Assembly (NCBI GenBank): GCA_043822305.1
Contig: JBDRBU010000066.1
Span: 1-17,702, forward strand
Origin: Candidatus Firestoneibacteriota bacterium
Lineage (GTDB): Bacteria > Oederibacteriota > D2-FULL-39-29 > JBDRBU01
Direction of reading: 5' to 3'
DNA: 17,702 bases
The notes beneath the pieces are model-generated. The model searched no databases, had not been told where the DNA came from, and worked only from the letters and a program-made list of their open reading frames with translations. This document shows, in pieces, positions 4,913 to 16,527 of the stretch; position 1 is the stretch's first letter, and every line of letters starts with the position of its first letter. The translations under genes were made by a program, and so were the position numbers.

Positions 4913-4930
4913 AAAATGTTCCCTGTCCCT
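4913..4930 (-). repeat. Possible solitary arm of the GGGACAG repeat family
   Basis: Minus strand AGGGACAGGGAACATTTT overlaps the GH57 TAG stop. It shares the GGGACAG core with the arms at 14005-14021 and 14075-14091. The match is short. Confidence 0.35.
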
Positions 4931-6506
4931 ATTTATACATTTTGTAATCAATATCAGGGAAGATATTATCTTTATATTCTATATCAGAAAGCCATTTTTC
5001 ATATATAGAATTACTATTTATCATATCATAAATTCTTGTAAATTTAGCGATATGTTCTTTTGTCCTTTTAACGGCATAATTTACATTTGTTTTTGTCTTC
5101 ATCATAAATGCCCAGTCAGAACTTTGAGCAAGTAATAATTCACGACTAGCCTGATTTAAAGCTCTTTTAAAAAGCCCTTCTGCATTTGGAAACCTTTCGG
5201 CTAATTCGCACATCCGGTCCGCTGCTTTATGCAAATGTCTATAAATCCAGTCATTACTTCCTTCTAGCCATACCTCATGATAACCTTTATACCCCCAGCT
5301 TGATTCACATGGCGTACAAACCTGATTTTTTGGGTATTCCTGTAAATATTCAGAAGGAGTTATACATTTTATAGTTTTTTGGTCATAATAAATTTTTCTG
5401 AATAAAAAGTTTAAAAAATTAGGACCTTCATACCACCAGTGACCAAAAAGTTCTGCATCATATGGAGAAATAATTATTGGCTTTCTATCCATTCCTTCGG
5501 AAAGCCATTCTATTTGCTTTTCTCTATTAAACATAAAATTACCAGATTGATCTGCTGCTTTTTCTAATGCTTTTTCTGGAACATAAACTTCTTTACATTC
5601 TAAAGAAGGACCTGTAATTCTATAATACTTTATTCCTGTAAATATTCTAGTACCATCAGAATTGATATATGGTTTTATATAATCATATTCTAAATCAAAA
5701 CCAACATCTCGGTAAAAATCCCTGCACCAGAAATCCCCCGGATAACCTTCTTTTGCACTCCAGACTTGTTTTGAAGATTCTAAATCTCTTCCAAATGCAG
5801 CTACACCTGATTTACAAAATACCGGAGCATAGACACCATACTTTGGACGAGGAGTTGAAAAATAAATACCATGGGCATCTAAAAAGAAAAATTTAATTCC
5901 ATTTTCTTTTAATATGTAATCAAGTCCGGGATAATATCCACATTCTGATAACCAGATACCATTTGGTCCCCGGCCAAAATGTTTTTTATAAATATCAACA
6001 CCTACTTTTATCTGTGCTTTAACCGCCTTTTGATTTAACATTAAAGGTAAATATCCATGTGTGGCTGCACAGGTAATGATTTCTAACTTTCCAGTATCCT
6101 GAATTTTTTTAAAAGCATGAACAAGATTCTTATCGCACTTTAAAAAATAATCTCTGGCTAATTTAAATTTATAATTATACATTCTTGCAACTTTGTTAAA
6201 ATCTGGTTGAAATTCTGTTCTCCTAATTTCTTTTTCAGTTAGTTCCATGAGTCGTTCAATATGTTTTAATGTTCTATCACAAAGTAATGGATCGACTAAC
6301 ATTGATATTAACGACGGGGTTAAGGACATGGTAATTCTAAAATCCACTTTATCTTCTAACAGTTTCTCCATCATTAAAAGCAAAGGAATATAGGTCTCGG
6401 TTATTCCCTCATAAAACCAGTCTTCTTCCAAAAAATCCTCATACTCAGGATGCCTGACATATGGTAAATGTGCATGTAAAACCAAACAAATATACCCTTT
6501 TTCCAT
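4929..6506 (-). CDS. 1,4-alpha-glucan branching enzyme, GH57 family (DUF1957-containing)
   Basis: Motifs LVLHAHLPYV, ETYIPLL, ATHGYLP, GIWLSECGY (nucleophile Glu), PYDAELFGHWWYEG (acid/base Asp), RELLLAQSSDWAF. Start moved to ATG 6506 (MEKGY, 525 aa) with AGAGAGGG SD, because the ORF-track extension runs through a repeat. Confidence 0.93.
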   Translation of the reverse strand: MEKGYICLVLHAHLPYVRHPEYEDFLEEDWFYEGITETYIPLLLMMEKLLEDKVDFRITMSLTPSLISMLVDPLLCDRTLKHIERLMELTEKEIRRTEFQPDFNKVARMYNYKFKLARDYFLKCDKNLVHAFKKIQDTGKLEIITCAATHGYLPLMLNQKAVKAQIKVGVDIYKKHFGRGPNGIWLSECGYYPGLDYILKENGIKFFFLDAHGIYFSTPRPKYGVYAPVFCKSGVAAFGRDLESSKQVWSAKEGYPGDFWCRDFYRDVGFDLEYDYIKPYINSDGTRIFTGIKYYRITGPSLECKEVYVPEKALEKAADQSGNFMFNREKQIEWLSEGMDRKPIIISPYDAELFGHWWYEGPNFLNFLFRKIYYDQKTIKCITPSEYLQEYPKNQVCTPCESSWGYKGYHEVWLEGSNDWIYRHLHKAADRMCELAERFPNAEGLFKRALNQASRELLLAQSSDWAFMMKTKTNVNYAVKRTKEHIAKFTRIYDMINSNSIYEKWLSDIEYKDNIFPDIDYKMYK

Positions 6507-6534
6507 GATAATAACCCTCTCTTTAATCTGTTTT

Positions 6535-6595
6535 GTAGCCGCAGGCTCTTTAGTCCTGTATCCGAGCATAACGAGTGGTACAGGGTTAACCTGCG
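6535..6595 (+). repeat. GTAG-tagged REP-like palindrome with a nested inner hairpin
   Basis: GTAG foot (6535-6538), outer stem CGCAGG (6540-6545)/CCTGCG (6590-6595), inner stem CCTGTA(T)CC (6555-6563)/GGTACAGG (6577-6584). Confidence 0.7.
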
Positions 6596-6599
6596 TATT

Positions 6600-7604
6600 C
6601 TATACAATATTTTGTTCTACAGTTATTCTTGCGGATTTTTTATGCTTGCCATCTTTTGACCTTGCTTCAATATTTATAATATGCTTGCCATCTGTTAAAG
6701 CAAATCTTAAACTAAAAGTACCGTCTTTTACTAATTTTACTGGAGTCTTATTTATTAAAACAACAGAATCTGGTTCTGTAGCACCATAAATAATTAACTC
6801 CGTACCAACCGTAAGCCAAAAAACTGACGGTAGCTTAAATTCCTTAAATCCGCTGCTAAGGCTACTTACCATCCCGGAAGAAATTTCCTCTCTTAACCTT
6901 CTTGAAATAATCTTTGATATAAACTCGGAACCAACTCCTCCCTTTAATTCACCTCTTAAGTATCTGCGATATAACTCTTCTTCGGATACCATCCATTCTT
7001 CATCATATACATTTGAAACTTTATCTGATGGGGTAGTGATAACATTTGACCTGGCATAAACAAAAAACTTACCAGATGGTGTCAGGATTCCAAGTTCAAC
7101 ACACCAACTTCTTTCTGGTTCTCCTACATTTATATACCAGTTATTAGCCAATCCACTAAGCACTAGATCAAAAGATTTATGAGCATTTTTCCCATTAAAC
7201 TTAATATTTGTGACATCATAGACTCTTAAAATAGATTTTGAATTATTAAAGTCCGAACCTGTCTTTTTCCTCATCAACTCTATATCAGAAGACGCAACAT
7301 CCCAATAGGCATAAATCCAGTATGGGTCCCTGGACATAATAACTATTTTAGTTTCATTATATCTCTCAGGTATTTCTTCTTTTTCCACTTCAATTATTTT
7401 TTTTTCTTTATTTACTCCGTCCCAAATGAATTGGGATGCTACTTTTTCTTTCTTTACTCCTGCTTTTTCTACTTCTTTTACCAACACACCAGAGGGTGTG
7501 GGGTTTACTTTTCCCACTTTTTTTGCTTTTTTAATCCTTGGAGTATTAACAAAGCCTTTTCTTCCCAGATTCTCTTTATTTCTAAAAGATTCTTTTTTTT
7601 TCAT
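6600..7604 (-). CDS. DUF4912 domain-containing protein
   Basis: Motifs PERYNET..SRDPYWIYAYWD, LRVYDVT, NNWYI, ARSN.ITTP, and a C-terminal ELIIYGATEPD..DGTF domain. Basic low-complexity N-terminus. ATG 7604 follows a GAGGTG SD. Adjacent to GH57. Confidence 0.85.
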   Translation of the reverse strand: MKKKESFRNKENLGRKGFVNTPRIKKAKKVGKVNPTPSGVLVKEVEKAGVKKEKVASQFIWDGVNKEKKIIEVEKEEIPERYNETKIVIMSRDPYWIYAYWDVASSDIELMRKKTGSDFNNSKSILRVYDVTNIKFNGKNAHKSFDLVLSGLANNWYINVGEPERSWCVELGILTPSGKFFVYARSNVITTPSDKVSNVYDEEWMVSEEELYRRYLRGELKGGVGSEFISKIISRRLREEISSGMVSSLSSGFKEFKLPSVFWLTVGTELIIYGATEPDSVVLINKTPVKLVKDGTFSLRFALTDGKHIINIEARSKDGKHKKSARITVEQNIV

Positions 7605-7619
7605 ATTTATCACCTCTTT

Positions 7620-8828
7620 TCAAAATTTATTTATCACTATTCCCGTAGGTACTTTAGGATAAAAGTATGTTGTTTTAGGTGGCATTCTTTCTAACCTAAA
7701 CGCAATATCCCTTACATCCTTTGCCGTTATGCCTGGCAATAAAAAACCAATATTAAAATCGCCTGAATTAACTTTCTTTATCACTTCTTTTTCATCAACC
7801 GTGTAAAAAATTTCTTTTGATTTTGGAAGAGTTTTCAATATTATATAATGCAATACTGCCGTTGGTAGTTTCCTCCACTTTAACGAATTTTTCGTTTTTA
7901 TTTTTTTTAATGAGATTTCATTTTTTAAACTTAATCTATAATACCTTTTATTTACATACATTACAATATTTTTATGGACATCTTTTGATTTAATTTCCTT
8001 AATATAAAAATCTTTAGATAATTTCTTTTTTATCTCATCAAAACCAACCCTGTGAACAAATTTAACCACCCTGTGAGTCGGCAATATCTTAAGTCCCTTA
8101 TCCTTAATGCTTACAAGAGAAAACATTATATAATTCCAGACTTCTTGAACATTTTTACAAACTTTCCCCATCTTTTTCTTAAAGGCCAGTGCAACCTCAT
8201 ATCTATGATGTCCATCTGCAATAAAAATTCTTTTGTTGGCCATGATATTAATAATATTTTTTATGGTTTCTACATTCTCTACCTTCCAAACTTTATTTAC
8301 CACCCTGCCTAATTTATCTTCTATATTAAATTTTAAAAATGGTTTTCTTTTCAAAGTATTATTAAAATCCAACCCTCCATCGTATAAGCCAAATATTGGA
8401 CTTAAATTCGCTTTACATTCTTTTAAAAGTTTTAACCTGTCCTTTTTATGTGTTGAAAAAGTATTCTCATGAGGTAAAATTTTCTTTTTCTTAAAATCTT
8501 CTAACTTTACAAGACAAATTAAACCAATTCTACTGTTATTCTTACCATCCATAATAAATTTTTGTTCATGAAGATAGAAACCTGGATAACCATCCTGAAT
8601 AAAAATTTTCTTTTTAATCCACTCGTCTAAAGTTCTCTTTGCTTTTTTATACTTATTCTCATTATTGTCTTTACGGAGAATAATCCTTACGATATTATAA
8701 GGAGAAAGATTATAATATTTACTTTGCATCGAAGGTGTTATGACATCATATGGAAGAGAAACCACTTTACGCAAATCTAACTTGTTTTCGTTAAACCTGT
8801 AGCCCTTAAAAGGAATTATTTTTACCAT
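7620..8828 (-). CDS. DUF1015 family protein
   Basis: 402 aa. Motifs PFKGYR, PYDVI, ILPHENT, NLSPIF, FIADGHHRY, ILPTHR, MPPKTTYFYPK. Confidence 0.9.
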   Translation of the reverse strand: MVKIIPFKGYRFNENKLDLRKVVSLPYDVITPSMQSKYYNLSPYNIVRIILRKDNNENKYKKAKRTLDEWIKKKIFIQDGYPGFYLHEQKFIMDGKNNSRIGLICLVKLEDFKKKKILPHENTFSTHKKDRLKLLKECKANLSPIFGLYDGGLDFNNTLKRKPFLKFNIEDKLGRVVNKVWKVENVETIKNIINIMANKRIFIADGHHRYEVALAFKKKMGKVCKNVQEVWNYIMFSLVSIKDKGLKILPTHRVVKFVHRVGFDEIKKKLSKDFYIKEIKSKDVHKNIVMYVNKRYYRLSLKNEISLKKIKTKNSLKWRKLPTAVLHYIILKTLPKSKEIFYTVDEKEVIKKVNSGDFNIGFLLPGITAKDVRDIAFRLERMPPKTTYFYPKVPTGIVINKF

Positions 8829-9998: not shown

Positions 9999-10032
9999 AA
10001 TGGAGTCGGGGTCGTCCCTGACCCCGACATAC
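9999..10032 (+). repeat. REP-like hairpin repeat (GTCGGGGTC family), copy 2
   Basis: AATGGAGTCGGGGTCGTCCCTGACCCCGACATAC. Perfect stem 10005-10013/10020-10028. Confidence 0.92.
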
Positions 10033-14004: not shown

Positions 14005-14091
14005 TAAAGGGGACAGCGACTTTTAAATCCACTCTCTTAATGGAACAATCCAATCTATTCTCTATCAATTTAATAGTCGCTGTCCCCTTTA
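14005..14091. mobile_element. 87-bp MITE/REPIN-like inverted-repeat element
   Basis: Perfect 17-bp inverted repeat TAAAGGGGACAGCGACT (14005-14021)/AGTCGCTGTCCCCTTTA (14075-14091), extending to 24 bp with one mismatch. 39-bp spacer. TA at both ends. Confidence 0.75.
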
Positions 14092-14346
14092 AATCAGTCC
14101 AGATTTTTCTTCAAATTTTTTCATATTATCTTGCAAGGCTAACAAAAATCTTTTTGTATGCTGAGGTGAAGAGATTATTCTCGACCTTATTTTATTCCTT
14201 GGTTGACCGGGAAATACAAAAGCAAAATCTATTATAAATTCCGTAGCTGTATGAGAAACCACAGCAAAATTAGCGTATATCCCCTTACCCGTTTCTTCAT
14301 CAATCTCTAAATTAACCTCCCCTTCTTTACCTCCATTTCCACTCAT
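14089..14346 (-). CDS. DUF3467 domain-containing protein
   Basis: 85 aa from ATG 14346 (AGGAGGTG SD). Motifs GIYANFAVVSHTATEFIIDF and SRIISSPQHTK. Confidence 0.9.
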   Translation of the reverse strand: MSGNGGKEGEVNLEIDEETGKGIYANFAVVSHTATEFIIDFAFVFPGQPRNKIRSRIISSPQHTKRFLLALQDNMKKFEEKSGLI

Positions 14347-14355
14347 ATACACCTC

Positions 14356-14380
14356 CTGATATCAGATGACAGTTCTGTCA
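14356..14380. promoter_or_regulatory. Two adjacent palindromes, possibly an operator
   Basis: CTGATATCAG (14356-14365) and TGACAG-TT-CTGTCA (14367-14380) lie between the upstream stop codon and the DUF3467 SD. Confidence 0.3.
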
Positions 14381-16450
14381 AAAATATAATCCAATTTTTT
14401 TTAATTCTTTAATTTTCTTCATTATGTGTGTTTGGTTTTTCTTTAATAATTTTTTACCATTTGTACAAAATTTACATTTTGGATTATCACAAAGAAGAAT
14501 ATCTAATCTTCCTTTTTCTATTTCTCTTATTGTAGTATTAACTATATCCTTCGCCCTTATTATGACAACATCTGCATTTCCTAAACTGCTTTTTTTTATA
14601 ATCCCGGATTTTTTAAAAACTTTCTCAATCTTTGAATCTTTTTTATAAAAATCTCTGCAACCAGATGGCGATTTAGTAACTTTAACTATTTCCTCTTTAC
14701 CGGCCATACCGGCGTCTCTTTCAACAATTGCTTTCTCTGTAGTTAGGTAAGGTAAATCTAACCAATCTTCTATAGCGTGTAAAGTAGTATTGCACCCCAG
14801 ACCCGTGCCGATAAAGATTACTTTTGCATTTAATTTCACATACTTCCCATATGGACTTTCTTTGGCAAAAGTACTTCCCTTATGTCCAGTTACTAATTCC
14901 CCTGCACCTTTTCCAACCGCACTTATTGAATGTGTGGGATGTTCACTTCTAAAAACATCTTTTCTCCTGAGTAACGCATTTGTTATTTCGCCTACTCTTG
15001 ATGGAGTTTTTTTTGGATTAAAGGCATAGTATCCTCCCAGAAACGAGAAACTTAAGGTAGGCACTATAACTATCCCCTCTTTTCCGACACATTCAACTAA
15101 GGCCTCAACAACAGTCTCAGCACCGCCTTCTACAACTCCAATACTTTTAAACGAAGAATGAACAAAAAGCACATCTCTTTTTTTTATTCCCATCTTCTTT
15201 AAATCTTTAATGATTTCTTGTTTTTTAATTCTATCATTCTTTTTAAATTTAATATATCCATTTTTGCCCATATATTTAAAAAATTTTATTAAATCTTTTA
15301 ATTTTATTTTATTAATTAGACTAATTATGTTAAATATCTCCGCTATTGTTCTTTTTCCATCAACCCAGTTAAGCATTACATTTGAATCTTTTTCAGAAAG
15401 TATCCAGGATAATGGAATTCCTGAAAATGTTTGCTCGGGAATTAATGAATGTGCAAATTTATTTTCTTTTAAGATATGTTTATTATTATTTTTATTGTAA
15501 AGATTAATAACTTCTTTAAGACTAACACACCTCATGTTGTAAAGATTTATAACTATATCTTTGTAAAACTTTTCTACCGATTCTCTTAAATCATCTGATA
15601 ATTTATGAACATAATTTCTTAAGCTAACCTTGTCCCCTTTATTGATTACAAGTTTTAACAAATCAGAAAGAGCGTTTGTTTCAATATTCATCAAATAATT
15701 TAATCTTTTATTAAATGATTCAAGATTCACATTAATACTACCTGTAAATTTTGTAAATGAATCTTGTATATTTTTAAAAAGGCGAGTTCTGGCACGAGTT
15801 ACCATTTCTTCACCTAACCAGCAAACATGATGAAGTCCAGAAGTAGCAAAGAAATAAAGACATGTGCCAATTACAACCCCAACATTATCAGGCGTATCTT
15901 TATCAGTCTCTTCAATTAACCTGACTAAAAAATCGTTCACATAAGAAGGAAATGAAGGACATGATTTTCCAATCACTAAATTTGTTCCGGCCTTATCTTC
16001 ATCTTCTCCGGCTATATCCAAGTTTATTCCTGCTATAATTTTTAAATTTTTATTTTTTTTTGCTTTAAAGAAAGATGCAAGGGCAAATATTTTATGCATC
16101 AAAATAAATCTAATAGTTCTTTCTGGTTTAAGTAGGATTTTTTTATTAATAAGATTAACTAAAGTCCTTGCAACTTCTAAACTTACTCTACAACCAGATG
16201 CATTATCATGAGAAATAACTAAGATTTCTTCTCCTTTCTTTTTCTCATTCACTCCAGGAATAACTCCAGTAATAGTATCAATAATTCCATGACAAGATAT
16301 TAACTCCACTTCAGCCAGACCGATTTCCCTCATTTTATCTGCACACCATTTTGCGGTTTCTTTATCAGAATAATGGATTTTTGCAATATTCTGTTTTGCT
16401 ATTTTACCTGAAAATTCTTTTGATACTGCTTCAAATATATTTTTATACAT
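14378..16450 (-). CDS. Fusion protein: degenerate M28/DUF4910-like peptidase domain, wHTH-like segment, and AAC(3)-family N-acetyltransferase
   Basis: C-terminal part (about 14378-15229) has LFVHSSFKSIG, VEGGAETVVEAL, VPT, RSEHPTHS, SPYGK and NTTLHAIE, which define the AAC(3)/Antibiotic_NAT family. N-terminal part has EEILVISH-DNASG, RTIRF, GINLD and LNWVDGKRTIAEI, resembling M28/DUF4910. Confidence 0.8.
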   Translation of the reverse strand: MYKNIFEAVSKEFSGKIAKQNIAKIHYSDKETAKWCADKMREIGLAEVELISCHGIIDTITGVIPGVNEKKKGEEILVISHDNASGCRVSLEVARTLVNLINKKILLKPERTIRFILMHKIFALASFFKAKKNKNLKIIAGINLDIAGEDEDKAGTNLVIGKSCPSFPSYVNDFLVRLIEETDKDTPDNVGVVIGTCLYFFATSGLHHVCWLGEEMVTRARTRLFKNIQDSFTKFTGSINVNLESFNKRLNYLMNIETNALSDLLKLVINKGDKVSLRNYVHKLSDDLRESVEKFYKDIVINLYNMRCVSLKEVINLYNKNNNKHILKENKFAHSLIPEQTFSGIPLSWILSEKDSNVMLNWVDGKRTIAEIFNIISLINKIKLKDLIKFFKYMGKNGYIKFKKNDRIKKQEIIKDLKKMGIKKRDVLFVHSSFKSIGVVEGGAETVVEALVECVGKEGIVIVPTLSFSFLGGYYAFNPKKTPSRVGEITNALLRRKDVFRSEHPTHSISAVGKGAGELVTGHKGSTFAKESPYGKYVKLNAKVIFIGTGLGCNTTLHAIEDWLDLPYLTTEKAIVERDAGMAGKEEIVKVTKSPSGCRDFYKKDSKIEKVFKKSGIIKKSSLGNADVVIIRAKDIVNTTIREIEKGRLDILLCDNPKCKFCTNGKKLLKKNQTHIMKKIKELKKIGLYF

Positions 16451-16456
16451 AAATAA

Positions 16457-16489
16457 AATGGAGTCGGGGTCGTCTCTGACCCCGACATA
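16457..16489 (+). repeat. REP-like hairpin repeat (GTCGGGGTC family), copy 3
   Basis: AATGGAGTCGGGGTCGTCTCTGACCCCGACATA. Perfect 9-bp stem with one loop substitution. Confidence 0.92.
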
Positions 16490-16498
16490 TATATTATA

Positions 16499-16527
16499 AG
16501 TATATCATATCTAATAAACCCTTTCAA
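16499..16527 (-). promoter_or_regulatory. sigma70 promoter for the leftward operon
   Basis: Minus strand TTGAAA (16522-16527), 17 nt, TATACT (16499-16504) with extended -10 TG. Confidence 0.7.

Follow-up and report, generated by a model that had tools for sequence, protein, structure and literature searches.

The prototype of the DUF4910/DUF2172/HTH_47 proteins, CA_C2195, is described as binding one Zn through His189, Asp195 and His324, and its published account portrays it as lacking a conventional peptidase site and as tied to aminosugar N-acetyltransferases by gene neighborhood and occasional fusion (PMC4000134). Cj1295 is presented as necessary for an N-acyl variant of pseudaminic acid, with removal of an N-acetyl group put forward as a hypothesis (PMC3068675). 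Members of this CA_C2195 (PDB 3K9T)/Cj1295 family are ~435 amino acids (aa) long and combine an M28-related domain, an inserted PA-derived domain and a C-terminal winged helix. Here we analyze a distantly related 690-aa protein encoded on contig JBDRBU010000066.1 of a Candidatus Firestoneibacteriota genome (GCA_043822305.1, hereafter G000); the window denotes that whole stretch of 17,702 nucleotides. In a single frame, the protein joins a heavily deleted M28/DUF4910-like region to an intact AAC(3)-family acetyltransferase domain, and we consider it somewhat more probable than not that the acetyltransferase is active and that the M28 core attached to it is catalytically dead yet retained as a structure.

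Such a protein would be a case of domain atrophy, in which a large part of a domain is lost inside an otherwise maintained protein. Prakash and Bateman (2015) describe domain atrophy as extremely rare (0.06% of domain instances), with functional sites kept in most of the cases in their account (PMC4432964). The window protein is a variant of a fusion family known from sequences, for which no characterizing paper was found. A search of the literature likewise returned no paper joining Antibiotic_NAT with M28, and nothing relevant on Firestonebacteria judging by titles and the starts of abstracts.

Results

The window gene and its 939-residue orthologue

The gene is one uninterrupted open reading frame (ORF) with an ATG start and no internal stop, as an earlier note made from the sequence alone had read it. 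The ORF start aligns with the MYKNIF/MYKQIY starts of orthologues, and the composition of the gene is like that of its neighbors. Its parts are as follows.

14378..16450, minus strand: whole ORF, 690 aa, with the stop codon at 14378-14380
15836..16450, minus strand: residues 1-205, atrophied M28/DUF4910-like core, modeled as five strands plus helices
16277..16294, minus strand: residues 53-58 (CHGIID), leftover of a PA-like insert that spans ~170 aa in relatives, lying between gaps of 82 and 85 aa
16205..16210, minus strand: H81/D82 junction, where 7 aa (LYEVGAN in the orthologue) are gone between the His and Asp ligand positions
16091..16093, minus strand: K120, at the position of the family's conserved Glu
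15902..15907, minus strand: T182/D183 junction, where 44 aa are gone, including the His ligand of FYHS
15386..15835, minus strand: residues 206-355, long-helix domain, complete but for a 2-aa gap when aligned to the orthologue P0002, with AlphaFold2 (AF2) helices at 206-233, 243-267 and 271-305
15236..15385, minus strand: residues 356-405, winged-helix-like module with a W-x-DGKRT motif, with a 15-aa gap just before it (15383/15382)
14507..15235, minus strand: residues 406-648, AAC(3)/Antibiotic_NAT acetyltransferase domain
14777-14779, minus strand: H558
14768-14770, minus strand: E561
14381..14506, minus strand: residues 649-690, C-terminal tail with a conserved LLCDxPxCxFC motif and two predicted helices

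With the N-terminal 410 residues as query, 102 of 7,999 scored proteins matched at E <= 1e-3, nearly all of them ~680-aa proteins carrying Peptidase_M28 and DUF4910. The standout was P0002, a 939-aa protein with M28, DUF4910 and Antibiotic_NAT matches, to which the window protein aligns collinearly at 74% identity while being 249 aa shorter. P0002 scores 53.8 bits for M28 over profile positions 12-189 and 25.8 bits for DUF4910 against a cut-off of 26.6, and through this relationship the M28/DUF4910 ancestry that the earlier note had proposed for the N-terminus is borne out. Metagenome contigs L016 and L017 encode proteins 99.4% identical to P0002. A DUF3467 gene (14089..14352, minus strand) begins 25 nt downstream of the window ORF and is followed by birA and coaX, and the same DUF3467-birA-coaX order is found downstream of the 939-aa orthologue gene in L016. 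Taken together, the collinear 74% identity and the shared downstream genes identify the window gene as the positional orthologue of the 939-aa gene. The genes upstream are not conserved, and L016 and L017 already differ from each other there. A 762-aa ORF that overlaps the L016 orthologue at its start was considered as a conserved partner and set aside, as it gave no match in G000 when used as query and the upstream gene in L017 differs.

Judged from its sequence, the 939-aa architecture begins with an M28/DUF4910-like domain that holds a PA-like insert and continues with a helical domain, a winged helix, AAC(3) and a Cys-motif tail. Full or near-full-length matches with open frames of 900-937 aa were found in seven genomes of the same order (G011, G010, G002, G008, G004, G001 and G007), with partial copies in G003 and G005 and some match in 23 of the 41 genomes searched, G000 included. 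The match in G004 (L009, G004:C116) holds one in-frame TAG. Two fusion proteins carry Candidatus Firestonebacteria source names, and P0103 is entered at NCBI as 'AAC(3) family N-acetyltransferase [Candidatus Firestonebacteria bacterium]'. The linking of DUF4910-like and AAC(3)-like modules to which the earlier note drew attention is real and, by these database matches, common and widespread. Ten of 13 matches of 379-1208 aa to the AAC(3) part prove to be fusions 901-939 aa long, and in a search of 1.84 billion representatives 50 of the best 150 clusters at 50% identity are at least 800 aa long. In the Atlas, fused clusters are commonest in Lentisphaerota.

Shorter forms also occur. Four proteins that start with M and carry a winged helix-turn-helix (wHTH), AAC(3) and the Cys tail without an M28 part (P0120, P0127, P0130 and P0178) are 333-372 aa long, and P0117 (295 aa) consists of AAC(3) and the Cys tail alone. 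Since such short proteins exist, the M28 module is an accessory that is absent or has been lost elsewhere, and wHTH-AAC(3) may represent the family's conserved core. G000 itself encodes a 607-aa paralogue at G000:C34 (L002:808-2628, plus strand) that scores 57.9 bits for M28 and 38.3 bits for DUF4910 and retains all ligand motifs. This protein, the only such paralogue found in the genome, has the helical region and winged helix and no AAC(3) domain.

Deletions in the M28-like domain

Set against L016, the window protein shows eight in-frame gaps within its length; it carries 3 extra aa in the AAC(3) domain and stops one residue earlier. Changes of length in the N-terminal region are losses throughout, and junction microhomology does not exceed 2 nt. 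The gaps are given below by window junction.

16364/16363: 8 aa
16289/16288: 82 aa, in the PA-like region
16277/16276: 85 aa, in the PA-like region, leaving only CHGIID between it and the 82-aa gap
16208/16207: 7 aa (LYEVGAN), between the His and Asp ligand positions
15905/15904: 44 aa, including the FYHS His
15881/15880: 8 aa
15488/15487: 2 aa
15383/15382: 15 aa

The consequences for the metal site were read from an alignment of 66 sequences, namely the window protein, P0002 and 64 other homologues, in which the five ligand columns behave as follows.

Column 1, His, conserved in 65/66: kept in the window protein (H81)
Column 2, Asp, conserved in 63/66: kept in the window protein (D82)
Column 3, Glu, conserved in 64/66: Lys in the window protein only (K120), His in one other sequence
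Column 4, Asp, conserved in 65/66: kept in the window protein (D145)
Column 5, His, conserved in 64/66: deleted in the window protein

The spacing from His to Asp is 1 residue in the window protein and 8 (22 sequences) or 10 (43 sequences) in the other 65. The PA-like insert region is down to 6 residues, compared with at least 170 in the shortest other sequence listed, and the last-His segment to 1 residue, compared with at least 41. These deletions are specific to the window protein among the aligned sequences, and because every other sequence has the deleted segments, the window protein is the derived form. The earlier note had recognized each of these defects without an alignment, describing the direct run of 'SH' into 'DNASG' at 16193-16210, the missing Glu in RFILMHK, the absent PA-domain insert and the absent last metal-ligand region, and its descriptions proved accurate. 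By sequence, the metal site cannot be intact, and metal binding has presumably been lost.

The identity of the substituted Glu deserves comment. In the classical M28 enzymes, the first E of the 'EE' pair is the general base. The whole fusion/DUF4910-like family shows just one Glu at this place, with P/F/Y/C before it and I/T/M after it. This single Glu aligns with the first E in all three printed alignments to aminopeptidases (2EK8, 3IIB and 6HC6), which makes the earlier note's placement of the catalytic Glu at K120 reasonable. The Pfam match of the window protein to Peptidase_M28 (PF04389) is partial and marginal (residues 82-156, profile 32-104 of 193, 22.3 bits against a cut-off of 21.3). 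DUF4910 gave no match at E <= 1, and DUF2172 and HTH_47 gave no Pfam match either. The putative winged helix is modeled as helices over residues 353-396 and a strand at 400-404, and the family profile aligns its DGKRT motif weakly to residues 393-421 of 3K9T.

Several mid-length proteins were considered as further deleted forms and rejected. Listed hits of 601-799 aa number nine with the window protein included, of which five were aligned (P0139, P0165, P0168, P0173 and P0212, 689-725 aa) together with P0219 (549 aa) from outside that range. All six are N-terminally truncated, beginning partway into the M28 region with the ligand loops kept, and none is window-like. Outside the alignment, P0119 (667 aa), P0175 (675 aa) and P0251 (685 aa) have their AAC(3) match at the N-terminus (residues 5-278), and P0104 (708 aa) corresponds to the G002 type with its N-terminus truncated. 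The G002 orthologue itself (L006:1501-4260) is full-length with His to Arg, Asp to Asn and DNAFG at ligand positions, and the full-length fusions P0110-P0112 have Asp to Asn at a ligand position. Erosion of the metal site may therefore recur in the fusion family even where no segments have been deleted.

The AAC(3) domain

In the C-terminal domain, the Pfam profile Antibiotic_NAT (PF02522) matches residues 430-641 at 161.8 bits against a cut-off of 25, covering profile positions 2-228 of 232. The motifs VHSS (430-433), RSEHPTHS (501-508) and NTTLHAIE (554-561) are all present, including the His and Glu that the earlier note had singled out. In a sequence alignment to solved structures, H558 corresponds to His183 of BA2930 (3E4F), a position that is mutated in entries 3N0S and 3KZL; this correspondence was counted by hand from the printed alignment. 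We take E561, three residues after H558, to be a catalytic residue. Both H558 and E561 are unchanged in 11/11 and 8/8 aligned fusion proteins in two alignments. Sequence searches against solved structures returned BA2930, AAC(3)-IVa, FrbF and YokD with E values of 1e-20 to 3e-16. Similarly, the AAC(3) fold is recovered in the predicted whole-protein model, for which the best Foldseek match is 6MN3_B (E 1e-16, TM by target 0.84, root-mean-square deviation (rmsd) 2.9 Å).

The NCBIfam models for aminoglycoside resistance all score below their cut-offs (AAC_3, 107.6 against 420; AAC_3_IV, 106.7 against 270; AAC_3_II, 90 against 480). Scores so far below the cut-offs assign the C-terminal domain to the AAC(3) family without marking it as a recognized resistance enzyme, and the window gene gives no evidence for aminoglycoside resistance. 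Searching its own genome, which is 96.8% complete, with the window protein yielded no further match to the AAC(3) part. A conserved set of Cys residues, formed by GCRDFY (C598, 14657-14659) and LLCDxPxCxFC, is common to the fused and short wHTH-AAC(3) forms and may constitute a small structural metal site in the AAC(3) tail.

Predicted structure

An AF2 run on the 66-row alignment afforded a whole-protein model with a mean predicted local distance difference test (pLDDT) score of 89.9 and a predicted TM-score (pTM) of 0.84. Residues 1-410 gave a pLDDT of 90.2 and a pTM of 0.90, and block pLDDT values over residues 1-205 ranged from 78 to 98. The model of residues 1-205 superimposes on the Aeromonas aminopeptidase 1RTQ (VIA-align Z 21.0, rmsd 2.4 Å, 194 aligned) and also aligns to other M28 and MH-clan enzymes. 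Foldseek matched the N-terminal model to the M28 aminopeptidases 1AMP/3B35 at E ~1e-6. For residues 1-410, the model also aligns to transferrin receptor 1 (Z 19.7), and 245 residues align to GCPII as far as model residue 280, which extends into the helical domain. In the Atlas model, residues 1-408 match DUF4910/M28 clusters at TM 0.83. Thus, the profile and structure comparisons proposed in the earlier note yielded a predicted M28 fold for the N-terminus with an incomplete set of ligands, and a compact M28-like core is plausible in these models. A predicted complex of two copies of residues 1-410 (score 0.00, mark 0.42) has no bearing on binding either way.

Tests of selection on the N-terminal remnant

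In the 64 other sequences, 33 N-terminal columns reach 90% conservation or more. Of these, the window protein keeps 23, substitutes 1 (the Glu) and has lost 9 by deletion; the remnant thus keeps 23/24 of the retained invariant columns. At columns at least 80% conserved, the only substitutions private to the window protein are E to K and G to A, both in the Glu motif.

The pairwise ratio of nonsynonymous to synonymous rates (dN/dS) against L016 is low in every domain. By the NG86 and maximum-likelihood (ML) methods, respectively, it is 0.245 and 0.09 for residues 1-205, 0.386 and 0.113 for the helical domain, and 0.116 and 0.056 for the AAC(3) domain; the winged helix gave 0.185. Silent sites are near saturation in this comparison, with third-position identity of 0.63-0.72. 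In a relative-rate test on amino acids with three outgroups, changes private to the window protein and to P0002 numbered 25:11, 22:15 and 19:15 in the remnant and 21:12, 20:13 and 23:10 in AAC(3). By these counts, the window lineage is somewhat faster everywhere and not in the remnant specifically.

A custom-written three-taxon branch codon model was also applied. Its clock version imposes equal synonymous length on the two sister branches, which is an assumption. With this clock, the window-branch dN/dS (omega) was 0.135-0.162 for the remnant, rejecting omega=1 at p <= 2e-12, and 0.083-0.091 for AAC(3). The ratio of window to orthologue omega was 1.35-1.8 for the remnant and 1.65-2.1 for AAC(3), and as it is no higher in the remnant than in AAC(3), no domain-specific relaxation is indicated.

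Other features of the window

Genes around the ORF are housekeeping genes, with no sugar cluster among them. Two further features lie near the start of the ORF.

16499..16527, minus strand: promoter-like site TTGAAA-17-TATACT with a TG extension, 5' of the ORF; it matches the consensus, and such sites are no more frequent than in shuffled sequences
16463..16486, strand not applicable: GC-rich palindromic hairpin 12 nt before the ORF ATG, one of 17 genomic copies

The Rfam match of the ORF 5' leader to L20_leader is at chance level only (17.4 bits against a cut-off of 58.7). The hairpin repeat has 9-bp arms and a 6-nt loop, and its 17 copies in the 31%-GC genome G000 compare with 0 for a reversed control. 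A second copy in the window lies at 10005-10028 between SPFH and DUF4398 genes, with 15 more sites elsewhere in G000 (e.g. L018-L021). It looks like a REP-like or terminator repeat family. Elsewhere in the window, GH57 branching-enzyme, DUF4912/glucodextranase-B-like and DUF1015 genes stand in a row (4929-8828, minus strand), an ordinary-looking glycogen-related cluster.

Discussion

On the reading we favor, the gene is the counterpart of one for a 939-aa multidomain protein, in which a metal-binding M28/DUF4910-like part that carries the PA-like insert precedes the helical domain, the winged helix, AAC(3) and the Cys tail. In this lineage, about seven in-frame deletions together with E120K took away the PA-like insert and disrupted the metal site. 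Two of the five ligand positions are gone, the His-Asp loop has been cut out, and a 205-aa alpha/beta core is left. The protein is most likely still an N-acetyltransferase acting on an amine, with an aminoglycoside not proven as that amine. The dead M28 core, together with the helical domain and winged helix, would be kept as a structural platform for the acetyltransferase, and the outcome would be a pseudoenzyme module that arose via within-domain atrophy.

A number of observations weigh against this reading. In all searches made, the deleted form was seen in one metagenome-assembled genome only, and a 5.8-billion-protein collection holds 1 member sequence on 1 contig. Furthermore, without the clock the branch model fails to reject omega=1 for the remnant (p 0.78-0.86); these unconstrained estimates are unstable because the outgroups are saturated at silent sites, so that silent change cannot be apportioned between the sister branches. 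The existence of apparently complete M28-less wHTH-AAC(3) proteins indicates that the acetyltransferase module does not generally need an M28 platform. On the structural side, the Atlas single-sequence model of the whole protein is moderate (pTM 0.54, pLDDT 0.76), and intact homologues in the alignment may account for the high confidence of AF2.

The main rival holds that the M28-like part is useless and is still being whittled away, with the frame held by the need for the downstream AAC(3) domain and the remnant looking conserved because relaxation is recent. We regard such ongoing decay as unlikely, if far from negligible. It would account for a deleted form unique to this genome and for N-terminal changes that are all losses; the M28-less proteins and the clock-free branch test fit it as well, as does the excess of unique changes in the remnant against one outgroup (25:11, p 0.029). 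The intact M28/DUF4910 paralogue without AAC(3) at G000:C34 could, in addition, cover the function lost in the window gene. However, seven or more separate deletions would have taken time to accumulate, and still the remnant is no more accelerated than AAC(3) and has kept all but one of its retained invariant residues. In addition, given a roughly even split of silent change, pairwise dN/dS values of 0.09-0.25 would keep the value for the window branch well under 1. Nor are the deletions random, since the insert and ligand-bearing loops were removed and the core models as a compact fold. The earlier note had likewise preferred a selected pseudoenzyme to decay, and the constraint on the remnant, in its low dN/dS and conserved columns, supports that choice; the part it proposed for such a module in scaffolding, substrate binding or oligomerization is a putative one. 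Its argument from frame preservation falls, because the downstream domain enforces the frame: indels upstream of it must be in frame, and frame preservation is not independent evidence of a selected N-terminus. The note had also named deletions unique to this genome combined with dN/dS near 1 as the signature of decay or misassembly; the deletions are indeed unique to this genome, but dN/dS is not near 1.

Two further explanations were weighed. An assembly or binning artefact, in which the contig misrepresents a full-length gene, is very improbable. The assembly is in 125 contigs and the protein is a singleton in the large collection, but a misassembly would not yield eight gaps, all multiples of three, in one open frame, between flanks ~20% different at the nucleotide level from the nearest relatives, in a gene with the composition of its neighbors and intact downstream synteny. 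A remodeled but still catalytic N-terminal domain, in which H81, D82 and D145, perhaps joined by K120, have become a novel site that acts on or binds the acetyltransferase substrate, would make sense of the retention of three of five ligand residues. Relatives tolerate ligand changes (H to R and D to N in G002; D to N in P0110-P0112), and CA_C2195 is described as binding its single Zn via a non-canonical set (PMC4000134). Even so, we judge this improbable, for the His and Asp are adjacent instead of 8-10 apart, the Glu is now Lys, and the pocket-shaping loop, the PA-like lid and the 44-aa segment are gone.

The window form amounts to a natural deletion experiment, in which the lid, ligand loops and Glu proved dispensable and the core, helical domain and winged helix are conserved. 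A bolder extension, which we offer tentatively, is that the remnant is a naturally minimized M28 core from which catalytic and lid elements were selected away. The M28-like module would then have a second, non-catalytic job separable from the metal site, such as positioning or assembling the acetyltransferase, and K120 may fill the vacated pocket. By the same token, the intact family might be a two-step editor of amino sugars or similar amines that removes and adds N-acyl groups, of which this lineage would keep the second step. The 690-aa and 939-aa forms are a ready pair for questions of metal-domain contribution and acetyltransferase autonomy.

Comparison with known systems

The closest relatives of the window protein are the orthologous 939-aa fusions (P0002 and those of L016 and L017; P0103), with which it shares domain order, downstream genes, the AAC(3) domain and the Cys tail. 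Unlike them, it has lost the PA-like insert together with the loop between His and Asp, the 44-aa segment that carries the last His, and the conserved Glu. Its likeness to the AAC(3) enzymes and their non-resistance relatives (AAC(3)-IVa, 6MN3; BA2930, 3E4F; YokD, 2NYG; FrbF, 3SMA) lies in the fold and the catalytic His-x-x-Glu motif, at 25-28% identity; a 405-aa N-terminal extension and the Cys-motif tail set it apart.

The relationship to CA_C2195 and Cj1295 is distant, although the fusion-family profile matches 3K9T at E 1.8e-17. Relative to these proteins, the window protein contains a helical domain in addition and carries AAC(3) as a covalent fusion; the PA-derived insert of the CA_C2195 type is gone, and no sugar-biosynthesis cluster surrounds the gene. 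By analogy, a step resembling N-deacylation and an N-acetyltransferase step could be combined in the intact fusion. The transferrin receptor offers a different parallel as a catalytically inactive M28-fold protein, but it keeps its PA (apical) domain, whereas the window protein has lost its PA-like domain.

Finally, as it stands in the assembly, the window protein is a putative case of domain atrophy: a large part of the domain is missing, the ancestral form was complete, and the ORF has its own start on one side and downstream domains on the other. Unlike most of the published cases, the window protein has had the functional site itself removed. Overall, it is a candidate, and a well-documented one, for atrophy inside a domain that took the active site with it, in a class described as very rare.

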